21,929 bases of DNA from IMG/VR virus record IMGVR_UViG_3300013232_000807. One strand, 5' to 3'. Below are positions 1,779 to 16,087 of this stretch, one piece after another. The notes beneath the pieces are model-generated. The model made no database searches. It saw only the letters and a program-made list of their open reading frames with translations, and had not been told where the DNA came from. Made by a program: the position numbers and the translations under genes. Origin of the DNA: a virus. The stretch's first letter is position 1, and every line of letters begins with the position of its first letter.

Positions 1779-1811
1779 GGCGAGCTCGTGAAGAGCCGCC
1801 GTTCTCTTAGC
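1779..1811 (+). terminator. candidate intrinsic terminator (hairpin + GTTCTCTTAGC tail)
   Basis: Stem GGCG(a)GCTC / GAGCCGCC with loop GTGAA, starting 7 nt after the stop at 1772. It is followed by the T-rich tail ending in CTTAGC. Confidence 0.35.
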
Positions 1812-1827
1812 TTCTACGCCGATTTGC

Positions 1828-1833
1828 CATAAG
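1828..1833 (+). promoter_or_regulatory. CATAAG motif upstream of 1850 gene
   Basis: Sequence gatttgcCATAAGgctcgtgaggtacaccATG lies 16 nt upstream of the ATG. Confidence 0.4.
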
Positions 1834-1849
1834 GCTCGTGAGGTACACC

Positions 1850-2953
1850 ATGAGATACCCCCCACGCAAGCAGCAGCATCCAGAGGTCATGTCGAGCGGC
1901 GTCTTCGGGCCGCCCATCTACGAGGCCATGCGCGAGATCTTCGCCGAGACCGGCCTCTACTCCTCCGGGCAGATCCAGGGCCTGCTCAACGGACTGAGCA
2001 CCGGCGGGCAGCGCTTCGACACGGCCCAGGGGGCGATGTGCTTCGCCATCCTGGCCTGGCAGGACAACGGCAGGGCCGTGTACTTCCTGGAGGAGGGGCT
2101 GGCCGAGACGCTCACGAACACCGAGATGCCGATGGACCTCTTCGACCTGCCGGCCTGGGTGCCGGACAACGGGATGTACGTCGTGGTGCCGCCGCTGTTC
2201 ATGCTCGAGAACCCCGACACGAGCCTCCACCCGGTCGAGGGGTTCTACCTGGTGAAGGACATGATCGCGGTCCCGAAGGGCAAGGACGGACGCCCCGACT
2301 ACCGCACCACGGACCACCTTCTCGACGGGAAGCACACGGTGGTCAGCTCCGACGAGGGCTACGAGATGGTGCAGGGCATCACCTGCGTCGGGGTGGGCAA
2401 GCCCAAGGGCTACACCTGGAACATGCGCGAGATGCGCAACGACGCGCTGGTGGTCTTCCACCTGTGCCCGGGCATCCCGCTCGGGGAGGACACGAAGAAC
2501 GCGTTCGGGGGCATCGCCGAGCTCGAGCGCGTCGTCGTGAACCTGCTCTACGCCATGCAGAACACCACCAGCGTGGTGGCGGAGCGCCGGCAGCCCGAGC
2601 TCGGAGACAAGGCCGCCAAGCGCCGGCCGGCGAAGGCGCAGAAGCTCCTGGACGAGAGTGGGAAGACCCTCGACGCGTACACCGTGCTCAGCCTGAGCCG
2701 CACCGTGCGGAGCGCGCGCCCCTCGGAGGCTCGGGAGGGCACGGAGACGCCCGAGCGCAAGCTCAGGCACCCGAAGTACATCTCGGGGCACTTCCACCGG
2801 TACTGGGTGCGTGACGCGGCCAAGGAACGCGTCCTCGAGACGAAGGACGGGAAGAGCGGGAAGCTCTACCTGGTCGAGTACCTGCTCGCGCCCTACCTCC
2901 AGGGCGCCGACCTCCCCAAGCCACCGACGAAGACCGTCATCGTGAGGGCCTGA
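1850..2953 (+). CDS. hypothetical protein (367 aa)
   Basis: GAGG (1840-1843) lies 6 nt before the ATG at 1850, with an in-frame GTG at 1838 as alternative. A long GC3-rich ORF. The N-terminal GPPIYEAMREIF motif is shared with the 389 gene. Confidence 0.7.
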   Translation: MRYPPRKQQHPEVMSSGVFGPPIYEAMREIFAETGLYSSGQIQGLLNGLSTGGQRFDTAQGAMCFAILAWQDNGRAVYFLEEGLAETLTNTEMPMDLFDLPAWVPDNGMYVVVPPLFMLENPDTSLHPVEGFYLVKDMIAVPKGKDGRPDYRTTDHLLDGKHTVVSSDEGYEMVQGITCVGVGKPKGYTWNMREMRNDALVVFHLCPGIPLGEDTKNAFGGIAELERVVVNLLYAMQNTTSVVAERRQPELGDKAAKRRPAKAQKLLDESGKTLDAYTVLSLSRTVRSARPSEAREGTETPERKLRHPKYISGHFHRYWVRDAAKERVLETKDGKSGKLYLVEYLLAPYLQGADLPKPPTKTVIVRA

Positions 2954-13363: not shown

Positions 13364-13412
13364 GACTCTGCGGCGGAAGATCCCGCACGCGTCACCCCAG
13401 AGGAACATCAAC

Positions 13413-16019
13413 ATGCCCCCGAACGAATCCAACGACCTCGTCCTCACCGGCGGACAGTTCTCCCTGCTCCGGGACAACACGAAGGGCGTCGTCTACACCC
13501 TGGTCGGCCCCATGGTCCACACGCGCTCCGGTACGAGCGAGACCCCCGTGGAGTGGAACGCCGACACCCGCGACTACCGCGAGGTCGACGCGCGCACCTC
13601 CGTCCAGCGCTTCGTGACCGCCCGGCGCAACGAGTACGTCGTCCTCTCCAACCCCGCGGTGAACGAGAAGAACGCCCACCCCTCCCACGGGTCGAAGCAG
13701 ATCGCCCAGGACCTGCTGGTGGGCGAGGAGGTCATCAAGCACGGTCCCTGCACGTTCGCCCTCTGGCCGGGCCAGTCGGCCGAGGTCATCCCGGGCCACG
13801 CGCTCCGGAGCAACGAGTACCTCATCATCGAGGTCGTCGACGAGGAGGCCGCGCGCAAGAACTGGGCGCAGTCCGTGCTCAAGAAGACCGCGGTGGTGGG
13901 GTCCGCCACGCGCACCGAGTTGCAGCCCGACGCCGCCGGCGTGCTGCAGGCCGACGCCACCACCGCCGAGGTCGCGCAGCCGACCTCCATCGCCACCAGC
14001 GACGCGCCGAGCGACCTGGCGGTGGGCGCGCAGTACCTCATCAAGGGCGACCAGGTCCGGTTCTACATGCCGGGCACCGGTGTGCGCGTGCTGCAGGACG
14101 ACAGCGGCGCCTACGTGCGGCAGGCCCAGACGCTCGAGATCCTCGAGTACGCCATCCTCCTGGACGAGGACGGCACCAAGAGCTTCCCGCGCGGGCCCTG
14201 CGTCGTGTTCCCCAAGCCGACGCAGAAGTTCCTCTCGACGGAGGACGGCAAGCGCGCGTTCCGCCCGATCGAGCTGAACGAGATCCAGGGCCTCCACCTC
14301 AAGGCCCTCACCAAGCACGTGTTCCTCGGCACCGAGTACGGCGAGGGTGACGAGTTCTTCCTCACGGGCCTGCAGTGCAAGCTCTACTACCCGCAGCCGA
14401 ACCACGCCTCCGTCAAGTACGACGGGAAGGCCCAGCACTACGCCGTGTGCCTGCCCGAGGGCGACACCCGGTACCTGCTCGACCGGAAGACCGGCGAGGT
14501 GGAGCTCGTGAAGGGCCCCACGATGCTGCTCCCGAACGCGGTGACCGAGGTCATCGTCCGTCGCGTGCTGACCGCGCGTCAGTGCGAGCTGTGGTACCCG
14601 GGGAACGTCGAGGCCGCGGACTACAACGCGGCGCTGCGGGCGCAGCAGTCCCAGACCCCGACCACGCGCACCGGTGTGAGCGACGGGCAGGCGGAGCGCG
14701 CGCGCATCCGCGGCGGCGGCGACGGGCAGGCGACGATGAACGCGATGCGCTCCACCACGTCGTCGATGATGGAGACCAGCAAGCTGTCGGGCCACCAGGT
14801 GATGGTGGGTGAGGAGATCTCCCGCTCCTCGACGTACAACGCCCCGCGCACGGTCACGATGAACGACAAGTTCTCGGGCGCGCCCGTCATCCAGCCCTGG
14901 CCGGGGTACGCGGCCATGGTGGTCGGGAAGGACGGCAGCCGCAAGGTCGTCGTCTCCGGCGAGCGCCACTACCTCGAGTACCACGAGGAGCTGCAGGCCT
15001 TCACGTTCTCCACCGGGCGGCCGAAGAGCGGGAAGAACCGCAAGTCGGACGTCTACCTGCGCGCGGCCAACAACGCCGTCCGCGACGAGATCACGGTCAT
15101 CACGAAGGACCACGTCCCCGTGAAGATCTACGTCTCGTTCCGGGTCGGCTTCGAGGGCACCACGCAGGAGGAGATGCAGCAGTGGTGGTCGGTCGAGGAC
15201 TACGTGAAGTTCCTGGTGGATCACGTCCGCAGCAAGGCGCAGGCCGCGGTGCGCAAGATGACGCTCACGGAGTTCTACTCCCAGCCCTCGGAGGCCGTGC
15301 GTGACATCGTCCTCGGGAAGGTGTCCGGCACCAGCGAGGGCGGGCAGCAGACGCGTCCGGGCCTGTTCTTCAAGGAGAACCGGCTCCGGGTGTACGACGT
15401 GGACGTGCTCGAGGTCACCATCGCGGACCCGACGGTGCAGCAGGCGATCAGCCAGACCGCCCTCAAGGTGGTCACCACCGAGCTGCAGCTCGCCCAGCAG
15501 ACCACGACGGTGACGGCGCAGGCCGAGATCACGCGGCTCCAGCTGCGGGAGCTCGACCTGAAGCAGCAGATCGTGGACGCCAACCACGAGGTGGCGCGGG
15601 ACGCGCGGAGGCGGGCGGCGGAGCTCGCCGAGATGGACCAGATCCACACGAAGGAACGGAACGCCTTCGACCTCGAGCAGCGGAAGCTGGAGGAGCTCGC
15701 CGAGTCGGAGCGGGCGGCCATCGCGCGTGAGCGCGAGATCGCGGACAAGAAGGTCGCGGTCGACCACGCGGCCGCGGTGTCCGAGATCGAGACCAAGGAG
15801 GTCGCGGCGCGCGCCGCGGCGGTCGGCGACAAGCTGGCGGCCGCCATCACGACGCTGGGCGACAAGCGCGTGCTGGTCGACCTGGCGAACGCCACGGCCG
15901 TGCAGCGGCTCATGACCGGCGAGGACCTCTCGTCGGCCCTCAAGAGCCTGGTGGGCGACGAGGCGGGTGCCGCGGTCGACACGCTCGCGCGGCGTCTGCA
16001 CGGCGCGGACGACGAGTAG
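13413..16019 (+). CDS. Major Vault Protein (MVP) homologue: N-terminal vault repeats, SPFH/band-7-like shoulder domain, C-terminal cap-helix coiled coil (868 aa)
   Basis: RBS AGAGGA precedes the ATG. The ORF is uninterrupted and GC3-rich. Several blocks align with human MVP (recalled from memory). The block LRDNTKGVVYTLVGPMVH matches LDQNSNVSRVEVGPKTY, and GEGDEFFLTGLQCKLYYPQP matches AGDEWLFEGPGTYIPRKEV. The block YLLDRKTGEVELVKGPTMLLPNAVTEV matches [26 protein letters not shown]. The block STGRPKS..DEITVITKDHVPVKIYVSFRVGFE matches [32 protein letters not shown]. The C-terminal roughly 250 aa form an Ala/Glu/Arg-rich coiled coil. Confidence 0.8.
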   Translation: MPPNESNDLVLTGGQFSLLRDNTKGVVYTLVGPMVHTRSGTSETPVEWNADTRDYREVDARTSVQRFVTARRNEYVVLSNPAVNEKNAHPSHGSKQIAQDLLVGEEVIKHGPCTFALWPGQSAEVIPGHALRSNEYLIIEVVDEEAARKNWAQSVLKKTAVVGSATRTELQPDAAGVLQADATTAEVAQPTSIATSDAPSDLAVGAQYLIKGDQVRFYMPGTGVRVLQDDSGAYVRQAQTLEILEYAILLDEDGTKSFPRGPCVVFPKPTQKFLSTEDGKRAFRPIELNEIQGLHLKALTKHVFLGTEYGEGDEFFLTGLQCKLYYPQPNHASVKYDGKAQHYAVCLPEGDTRYLLDRKTGEVELVKGPTMLLPNAVTEVIVRRVLTARQCELWYPGNVEAADYNAALRAQQSQTPTTRTGVSDGQAERARIRGGGDGQATMNAMRSTTSSMMETSKLSGHQVMVGEEISRSSTYNAPRTVTMNDKFSGAPVIQPWPGYAAMVVGKDGSRKVVVSGERHYLEYHEELQAFTFSTGRPKSGKNRKSDVYLRAANNAVRDEITVITKDHVPVKIYVSFRVGFEGTTQEEMQQWWSVEDYVKFLVDHVRSKAQAAVRKMTLTEFYSQPSEAVRDIVLGKVSGTSEGGQQTRPGLFFKENRLRVYDVDVLEVTIADPTVQQAISQTALKVVTTELQLAQQTTTVTAQAEITRLQLRELDLKQQIVDANHEVARDARRRAAELAEMDQIHTKERNAFDLEQRKLEELAESERAAIAREREIADKKVAVDHAAAVSEIETKEVAARAAAVGDKLAAAITTLGDKRVLVDLANATAVQRLMTGEDLSSALKSLVGDEAGAAVDTLARRLHGADDE

Positions 16020-16026
16020 CAGAAGT

Positions 16027-16087
16027 CGGTGTGCGCGGTGGGGCCAACAAGCCCTGCCGCGCACACCGCGTGCGCTATTTCTTAGCC
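16027..16087 (+). terminator. strong hairpin terminator followed by TATTTCTTAGCC
   Basis: An 18-bp stem spans 16027-16044 / 16051-16068 (cGGTGTGCGCGGtgggGC ... GCccTGCCGCGCACACCg, two G-U pairs) with loop CAACAA. The T-rich tail gcgcTATTTCTTAGCC begins 7 nt after the MVP stop. Confidence 0.6.

Follow-up and report, generated by a model that had tools for sequence, protein, structure and literature searches.

This study concerns a 21,929-base stretch of viral DNA, IMG/VR virus record IMGVR_UViG_3300013232_000807 (the window, by which we mean the whole stretch), and two short elements that recur in it: a hairpin followed by the word TTAGC at gene ends, and a promoter-like box, GnCATAAG, in front of genes. 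Several phage systems resemble one or other of the two. The T4 late promoter TATAAATA (gp55/gp33) is a phage promoter with only a -10-type element, and extended -10 promoters are described for the Thermus phage P23-45. T7 RNA polymerase stops at class II terminators, which are sequence-specific (ATCTGTT) and need no hairpin. Stop and start signals are combined in the promoter-early stem-loops (PeSLs) of T4-like phages, which are composite terminator/promoter cassettes (Arbiol et al. 2010, PMC2839356; Comeau et al. 2014, PMC4122927), and 61 terminators of the giant phage phiKZ have been mapped, with the motif BCCYCCCCHWWDGGGRRGGBYTTATKYYGT (Putzeys et al. 2024, PMC10914365).

The motif pair in the window is a conserved, clade-specific and real form of punctuation, a variant of the known phage terminator-promoter cassettes. 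Judging from sequence, we think it probable that hairpin-TTAGC and GnCATAAG are the predicted terminator and promoter by which this phage clade marks off its transcription units. The window is 67% GC, and nearly all of its genes lie head to tail on the plus strand with overlapping stop and start codons. Its six copies of TTAGC (at 1068, 1807, 4026, 11964, 13329 and 16082) are all intergenic, on the plus strand and 34-62 nt 3' of a stop codon. Over the whole window this number is no excess (8.3 are expected from dinucleotide shuffling); what is non-random is placement and strand. CATAAG occurs eight times, again only on the plus strand, where 1.2 copies are expected and none of 100 shuffles reaches eight, and all copies are found 22-55 nt 5' of start codons. 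Five of them follow a TTAGC by 2-24 nt. The initial annotation had noted four such pairs, all of which stand, and had overlooked the one at 1085; the remaining three copies (3365, 12689 and 17341) occur alone.

Megablast detected no DNA-level relative of the window among 50,697 phage records; the only part that matched was its very end (21882-21929), an untrimmed Nextera transposase adapter and index shared with 20 unrelated records. Relatives were identified through three proteins and examined as pieces of ∼ 20 kb. The 868-aa protein resembling major vault protein (MVP) led to L001 (63% identity to the window copy), L003 (60%), L006 (50%) and L008 (49%), a 367-aa protein to L011 (79%) and L015 (57%, from a 188-kb contig), and a 495-aa protein to L019 (62%), L020 (56%) and L021 (54%). 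L020 and L021 are probably the same phage, since they have motif sites in common. These genomes belong to a clade of GC-rich, uncultivated phages with contigs of up to 188 kb; rIIA/rIIB are among their genes, and no phage close to them has been cultured. Both motifs occur again in nine or more related phage genomes from metagenomes.

Words were counted in 105 intergenic regions (9.8 kb) of seven genomes. TTAGC occurs 36 times on the plus strand and five times on the minus strand (7.1 expected), TTAGCC 23 times and never (2.0 expected), and CATAAG 44 times and never (1.7 expected). TTTT, with 11 copies on each strand against 12.9 expected, is not enriched, nor are TTAA and TTAC, and plus-strand TTAT is depleted (two copies vs 13.5). 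An unbiased k-mer count in 63 intergenic regions of five genomes had CATAAG at the top (30 regions) and TTAGCC in joint second place (14 regions), just above the Shine-Dalgarno words; neither of the two was counted in any region on the opposite strand. An excess of TTAGC is absent from the count for the window as a whole and present on the plus strand of intergenic DNA, where a hairpin of at most -8 kcal/mol ends within 2 nt of 25 of the 36 copies. Inside genes, TTAGC is found at the level of codon-shuffled sequences (6 vs 6.2), whereas CATAAG falls short of its expected number, as does its complement (1 vs 5.4 and 0 vs 3.6 respectively). Because TTAGC is not avoided inside genes and CATAAG and its complement are, the counts suggest that TTAGC matters only beside a hairpin and that CATAAG is a signal in its own right.

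The division of labour between the two motifs follows from the orientation of the flanking genes, a test that we regard as decisive. At convergent gene ends TTAGC is present in four of five cases (a count that includes L001 7255) and CATAAG in none; in divergent regions TTAGC is present in none of eight and CATAAG in seven. TTAGC thus marks where a transcription unit ends (3') and CATAAG where one begins (5'). Where a region contains both, TTAGC is 5' of CATAAG in 24 of 24 cases, at a spacing that varies from 2 to 54 nt. The proposal that TTAGC is the terminator-side half of a composite terminator-promoter cassette is supported by these polarity counts and by the constant order at variable spacing. 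Comparison of homologous junctions in the relatives, which the initial annotation had recommended, points the same way: TTAG is kept and each junction folds, with stems too diverged to align. The retention of the word where the hairpins have diverged past alignment supports the earlier view that TTAGC goes beyond what an ordinary terminator needs. An attempt to detect covariation from aligned junction hairpins failed for the same reason, the stems being unalignable; we take this to mean that only TTAG is conserved, and it lends no support to any particular structure.

Both motifs are confined to the clade of the window. Scanning IMG/VR with an alignment of the MVP-like proteins gave one distant locus only (L010, 37% identity), which lacks the motifs; a scan with the single MVP-like protein gave no match, and an exact-protein look-up of the window's MVP-like gene returned no record. 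The motifs are also absent from the huge phage LR756500 (MVP identity 38%; 24% GC). Among 43 metagenomic loci with homologues of the 495-aa protein, they occur only at identities of at least 54% (L019-L021) and are absent from loci below ∼ 45%. In a 22.6-kb Haliangiaceae locus, which carries the nearest bacterial MVP homologue, CATAAG is absent and no gene end is followed by an oriented TTAGC; this speaks against a host-type terminator, although the sample is small and the host assignment tentative.

Within the clade the unit-end module consists of a stable, GC-rich, transcription-oriented hairpin 3' of the stop codon (sites are 15-80 nt after stops) and the TTAG word. Stems have 4-22 pairs (median 12), and loops are mostly 4 nt. 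A C-run/G-run apex is found in 14 of 36 hairpins, and the stems are otherwise unrelated. At 19 sites in five genomes the gap between hairpin and TTAGC is 0 nt (eight sites), 1 nt (four) or 2 nt (four), then 3, 4 and 6 nt. The invariant core across relatives is TTAG: the fifth base is mostly C, with G, A or T at some homologous junctions, the bases 5' of TTAG are pyrimidine-rich, and the base 3' of TTAGC is usually C. L019 has TTTAGATCC in place of the usual word after its hairpins (4440-4483 and 17590-17633) and retains CATAAG (eight copies on the plus strand, none on the minus strand), so that the tail word evidently drifts within the clade while the TTAG core is stable. The TAG of TTAGC does not act as a back-up stop codon, since the stop-to-motif distances place it in all three frames relative to the upstream open reading frame (ORF). 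As a separate observation on stop codons, AGTAGG (12 of 63 regions) and GAGTAG (10 of 63) are among the most enriched unit-end words (e.g. window 11920-11925, 16017-16022 and 17332-17337); the last gene of a unit tends to stop with TAG-G, and internal genes with TGA inside ATGA or GTGA overlaps.

All the gene-end intervals of the window that had been singled out fold stably, as anticipated (-16 to -43 kcal/mol, z-scores -2.4 to -6.4). The initial annotation described a hairpin with a T-rich tail ending in TTAGC. Hairpin and TTAGC are confirmed; the supposed T-rich bases are mostly paired, forming the outer stem at five of six TTAGC sites and at a TTAGG site, so that TTAG begins 0-1 nt after the last pair at these sites. 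On the plus strand, the first hairpin (1036-1067; -20 kcal/mol, z -2.35) follows a 61-aa gene (stop at 1032) and ends on the base before the TTAGCC at 1068-1073, a site that had been thought to have no clear hairpin. The next (1773-1806; -23 kcal/mol, z -4.1) follows a 219-aa gene and adjoins TTAGC at 1807-1811 (TTAGCT) without a gap, as does the hairpin at 3993-4025 (-25.5 kcal/mol, z -3.2), after the gene ending at 3988, with TTAGC at 4026-4030 (TTAGCG); homology to L011 resumes there at 4022. At a convergent gene end, the hairpin at 11931-11962 (about -28 to -30 kcal/mol, z -4.3) separates the 495-aa gene from genes on the minus strand. Its TTAGCC (11964-11969) has no promoter box after it, and TTAGC is kept at the same junction in L001, L003 and L011. 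Behind a 95-aa gene, the hairpin at 13291-13328 (-28.3 kcal/mol, z -4.1) is directly followed by TTAGCC at 13329-13334, kept at the homologous junction of L001, L003 and L008 despite differing stems. The long hairpin after the MVP-like gene (16027-16068; -42.7 kcal/mol for 16020-16086, z -6.4) precedes TTAGCC at 16082-16087. Finally, the weaker hairpin reported after the 2H gene does fold (16549-16573; -16.4 kcal/mol, z -2.7) and carries the variant tail TTAGGG at 16575-16580, with no CATAAG after it.

In the logo of 32 CATAAG sites, position -2 is G in 29 and the base 7 nt past the hexamer is a purine in 30. The hexamer itself reads C/T-ATAAG, with the ATAA core and the final G invariant; A is weakly preferred at -19, and there is no -35 box. 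GnCATAAG is a putative promoter built on a -10-type element alone. Its geometry is that of an extended -10 promoter, yet it has C and G at two positions where sigma-70 needs T. A scan of the window for sigma-70-like promoters gave no sites, and the literature contained nothing relevant on CATAAG as a phage promoter. Among the boxes of the window, all on the plus strand, those behind a unit-end module are at 1083-1090, 1826-1833, 4031-4038 and 16094-16101 (28, 22, 40 and 25 nt before the ATG codons at 1113, 1850, 4073 and 16121 respectively) and, with T for G at -2, at 13358-13363, 55 nt before the ATG of the MVP-like gene at 13413. Of the boxes standing alone, 3363-3370 overlaps a TAA stop codon (3367-3369) and precedes ATG 3388 by 23 nt, 12687-12694 is in a divergent region without TTAGC, 32 nt before ATG 12721, and 17339-17346, like the first without hairpin or TTAGC, is 33 nt before ATG 17374.

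Genes on the minus strand have a different signal. A sigma-70-type extended -10 box, TGTTAGAAT (12634-12642, minus strand), is upstream of gene 12151-12615, and the box (TGnTAnnAT) is conserved as TGTTACCAT, TGTTATCAT, GGTTACCAT or GGTAGAAT in L001, L003, L011 and L008; the minus-strand unit has no TTAGC tail of its own. Since the few minus-strand genes have an ordinary TGnTAnnAT box, two promoter classes coexist. A third conserved sequence, GTACTCACA (window 16587-16595, L011 19241 and L003 13803), lies between TTAG[GC] and the start of the VanY-type endolysin gene, 7-8 nt downstream of the former and 12-16 nt upstream of the start codon, at junctions without CATAAG; a leader element or a distinct (late?) promoter are possible roles for it.

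Once in L020 (7928-7972) and twice in L011 (4298-4392 and 4814-4907), no ORF separates a promoter box from the hairpin-TTAGC that follows it, which is the bracketing expected of start and stop signals on short units. Both L011 pairs fall within 1 kb of ORF-less DNA of lower GC content (4197-5224), in which hairpin-TTAGC occurs four times and the promoter box twice. The resulting mini-units, some 40-90 nt long, are candidates for small RNAs, and one contains GGGTTCGACTCCC, which resembles a tRNA T-arm. Neither Rfam nor ARAGORN gave a match to the mini-units; Rfam had none anywhere on the window or the L011 ORF-less region, and no tRNAs were found in the relatives.

Taken as a whole, the cassettes resemble PeSLs. 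In both, a stem-loop terminator in intergenic DNA precedes promoter, Shine-Dalgarno sequence and start codon, an arrangement predicted here in 24 hairpin-TTAGC to CATAAG regions; in both, small genes of unknown function lie between cassettes, often singly (e.g. the left 7 kb of L011). Some of the clade cassettes also fall at indel or replacement boundaries between relatives. However, PeSL promoters fit the E. coli sigma-70 consensus and have an AT-rich upstream region, whereas GnCATAAG has G for T at -7. PeSLs are also conserved over ∼ 100 bp, in contrast to motifs of 5-8 nt beside unrelated stems, and have no counterpart of the TTAGC tail. The closest precedent for the tail is phiKZ, where the stem-loop is likewise followed by a short conserved word containing T-T-A in place of a long U-tract; 14 of 36 clade hairpins have a C-run/G-run apex like that of phiKZ, and phiKZ too has a promoter code of its own. 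The phiKZ word is TTAT rather than TTAG(C), its stem sequence (CCYCCCC...GGGRRGG) is conserved where that of the clade is free, and its terminators have been mapped by experiment and assigned to known phage RNA polymerases, whereas those of the clade are predictions from sequence. An intrinsic terminator shares the GC-rich, transcription-oriented hairpin soon after the stop codon and a tail that starts from the foot of the stem. Here, however, the tail has two T's only and G-C(C) is conserved instead of a U-tract: six of seven window sites fail a scan for U-rich terminators, the exception being the site of the TTAGCC at 16082, where 16059-16075 passes by virtue of TATTTCTTAG. GnCATAAG shares with the T4 late and P23-45 promoters the ATAA core and the lack of a -35 box; its G at -2 recalls the TGn of extended -10 elements, and a purine is conserved 7 nt past the hexamer. 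It differs in having C for the first T and G for the last T of the hexamer. The likeness to T7 class II terminators is that viral transcription would stop at a specific short sequence rather than a U-tract, but TTAGC apparently acts only beside a hairpin, and ATCTGTT itself is absent from both strands of the window.

Two further hairpin-based systems do not account for the module. N4-type hairpin promoters have a fixed geometry, with stems of 5-7 bp and 3-nt loops; 3-nt loops occur in two of 37 clade hairpins, and the range of stem lengths is far wider. A lambda-type nut site, with a CGCTCTTA-like boxA before the boxB hairpin, has the reverse order, since here the hairpin comes first and the motif is 5' of the promoter box. 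GCTCTTTA is absent, and CGCTCTT occurs only inside genes. The anti-termination signal that had been offered as one reading of the module has no specific support: nothing arranged like a boxA or nut site is present, and TTAGC is 5' of the promoter, not in a leader.

The sequence features suggest the following mechanism. At the end of a unit, a stable hairpin of arbitrary sequence, 15-80 nt past the stop codon, would form in the nascent RNA, followed typically 0-2 nt on by TTAG, usually as TTAGC(C). In the transcript UUAGC would stand where an intrinsic terminator has its U-tract: the hybrid formed by its UUA would be short and weak, and the polymerase, or a factor assisting it, would recognize the conserved G-C(C) by sequence. 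The outcome would be release of the transcript, or at least a defined 3' end. The next unit would start from GnCATAAG acting as a -10-only promoter, with the conserved purine 7 nt after the hexamer as the putative start, and wherever units are consecutive the two signals would come to lie side by side as a terminator-promoter cassette. Because GnCATAAG is not a sigma-70 promoter, the enzyme is probably a phage-encoded or phage-modified polymerase, and the tail would most likely be read by the very machinery that uses GnCATAAG.

Several points weigh against this interpretation. The position of the motifs is what suggests termination, and the U-tract of about 4-8 U that should follow an intrinsic terminator stem is replaced by TTAGC(C). 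Since a UUAGCC hybrid is much stronger than one with a U-tract, classical hairpin-driven release by bacterial RNA polymerase alone is not expected, and searches of ∼ 150 kb of clade sequence (Pfam, PHROGs) found no polymerase or sigma factor gene. The abutment of hairpin and tail is not universal: the stem ends 13 nt before 16082 and 4-16 nt before TTAGC at a few sites in relatives, and some unit-end hairpins of the more distant relatives in the clade have no TTAG (e.g. L008 12698 and L015 19586, the latter with TTTTAAC). Moreover, a hairpin end within 2 nt has a high null expectation from folding (0.35), so that the test is only moderately strong (P about 3e-5). Lastly, hairpin-TTAG is followed by a gene without CATAAG at window 16575, L001 13751 and L003 13791, which implies read-through or another promoter class. 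A bolder version of the proposal is possible and is put forward tentatively: hairpin and UUAGC may form a two-part, sequence-specific terminator read by a non-canonical machine that also recognizes the -35-less GnCATAAG, the whole amounting to a private start/stop code of a large GC-rich phage clade that probably infects Myxococcota.

The same sites could instead serve RNA processing or stability. UUAGC, at the 3' foot of the hairpin, would then be the point where an endoribonuclease of host or phage cleaves; each upstream mRNA would keep a protective 3' stem-loop while transcription reads through. RNase E-type enzymes prefer a short AU-containing single-stranded segment beside a stem, and the tight abutment to the stem, the polarity and the dependence on a hairpin context fit cleavage as well as they fit termination. 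Read-through would also explain how the three genes without CATAAG are expressed. Processing is the main rival, which we consider less likely than termination: read-through would make a promoter box directly after most sites (24 regions) needless, convergent gene ends, at which it matters most that polymerase stops, retain TTAGC, and no candidate nuclease was found among the Pfam and PHROG hits.

Another role proposed for the modules is recombination, with the hairpin-TTAGC site as the crossover point for gene cassettes, resembling an integron attC site or a PeSL, and any role in transcription secondary. Boundaries of indels and replacements between relatives do coincide with modules. Homology between L001 and L003 runs to the final base of one TTAGCC (7260) and, elsewhere, to 8 nt beyond the TTAGC at 13751; it sets in again precisely with the CATAAG of either genome, across a replaced block of lysis genes. 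TTAGC is thus co-inherited with the upstream unit and not with the downstream one. The block with the MVP-like and 2H genes (13293-16555) is an indel relative to L011, bounded by hairpin-TTAGC/CATAAG modules. In all, three breakpoints fall on TTAGC or CATAAG and one indel is module-bounded, but the cases are few, and breakpoints between regulatory modules in intergenic DNA are expected in any phage mosaic. The sequence GTTAGCC is superficially like the attC core GTTRRRY; the inverse core (RYYYAAC, in the form GCTAA) is found at the 5' foot of one of 36 sites only, and TTAGCC is outside the stem, so that an integron attC site is rejected. Five to six nucleotides of identity are too short for homologous recombination, no integrase is nearby, and the strict transcriptional polarity would be left unexplained. 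A primary recombination site is therefore very unlikely, and what survives of the earlier suggestion of a recombination junction is the coincidence of homology breaks and the MVP-2H indel with the motifs. On the terminator-promoter interpretation, the cassettes would as a side effect also mark the boundaries of gene-block exchange between relatives.

It is likewise highly improbable that TTAGC is an upstream promoter element, a -35-like or activator-binding box working together with CATAAG. Its constant position 5' of CATAAG would suit such a role, and several cassettes have similar spacings of 21-28 nt, filled by an A-rich stretch. Across all regions, however, the variable spacing rules out a fixed -35/-10 pairing with CATAAG or another box, and there is no second box at a fixed distance from TTAGC. 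The element is missing from all eight divergent promoter regions although seven of these have CATAAG, it is present at convergent ends with no plus-strand gene downstream, and it is inherited with the unit upstream of it. Chance, in the sense of AT-containing pentamers merely confined to the intergenic DNA of a 67% GC genome, as the low whole-window count of TTAGC might suggest, is refuted by the one-sided excess of intergenic TTAGCC, by the lack of enrichment of other T/A-rich words and by conservation at homologous junctions in at least nine genomes.

Several genes of the window deserve mention in their own right. Its products include a single-stranded DNA-binding protein (SSB), a dCMP deaminase, an NT5C nucleotidase, a GIY-YIG nuclease, a 2H-like phosphoesterase, the VanY-type peptidase and a GyrB-like topoisomerase subunit. 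The 868-aa protein (13413-16019) is a phage-encoded homologue of eukaryotic major vault protein with an MVP shoulder domain (1e-22); homologues with ∼ 40% identity are present in metagenome-assembled genomes of Haliangiaceae/Kofleriaceae, adjoining Ro60/TROVE and RNA ligase genes (L016), and with 36-38% identity in the published huge phages LR756500-3. The 367-aa protein (1850-2953) and its homologues have a precomputed Pfam match to PF26125 (AcrVA2-like), which our own Pfam scan at E ≤ 0.01 did not return. GIY-YIG/HNH nuclease genes are scattered and differ between relatives (window 10068-10403 and 20301-20846; L003 3052-4188, 17136-17633 and 20040-20579); they are possible homing endonucleases that add to the mosaicism.

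If the bolder proposal is true, these phages would possess a complete private code for starting and stopping transcription, in which a defined pentamer replaces the U-tract and the machine is either a phage-encoded polymerase or a host polymerase reprogrammed by the phage; some phage factor or polymerase is predicted to carry the specificity for TTAGC and GnCATAAG. Should TTAGC indeed stand in for the U-tract, it would be a second example, after the stem-loop and TTAT of phiKZ, of phage terminators that need a specific short word, and would bear on how termination works where the RNA:DNA hybrid is not U-rich. The motif pair also offers an annotation rule for large uncultivated phages without a cultured relative, namely that a unit runs from GnCATAAG to hairpin plus TTAG, and the same rule flags ORF-less mini-units that are possibly small RNAs. 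For the evolution of the clade, the cassette boundaries would mark where blocks of genes, such as that with the vault-protein gene, have been gained and lost.

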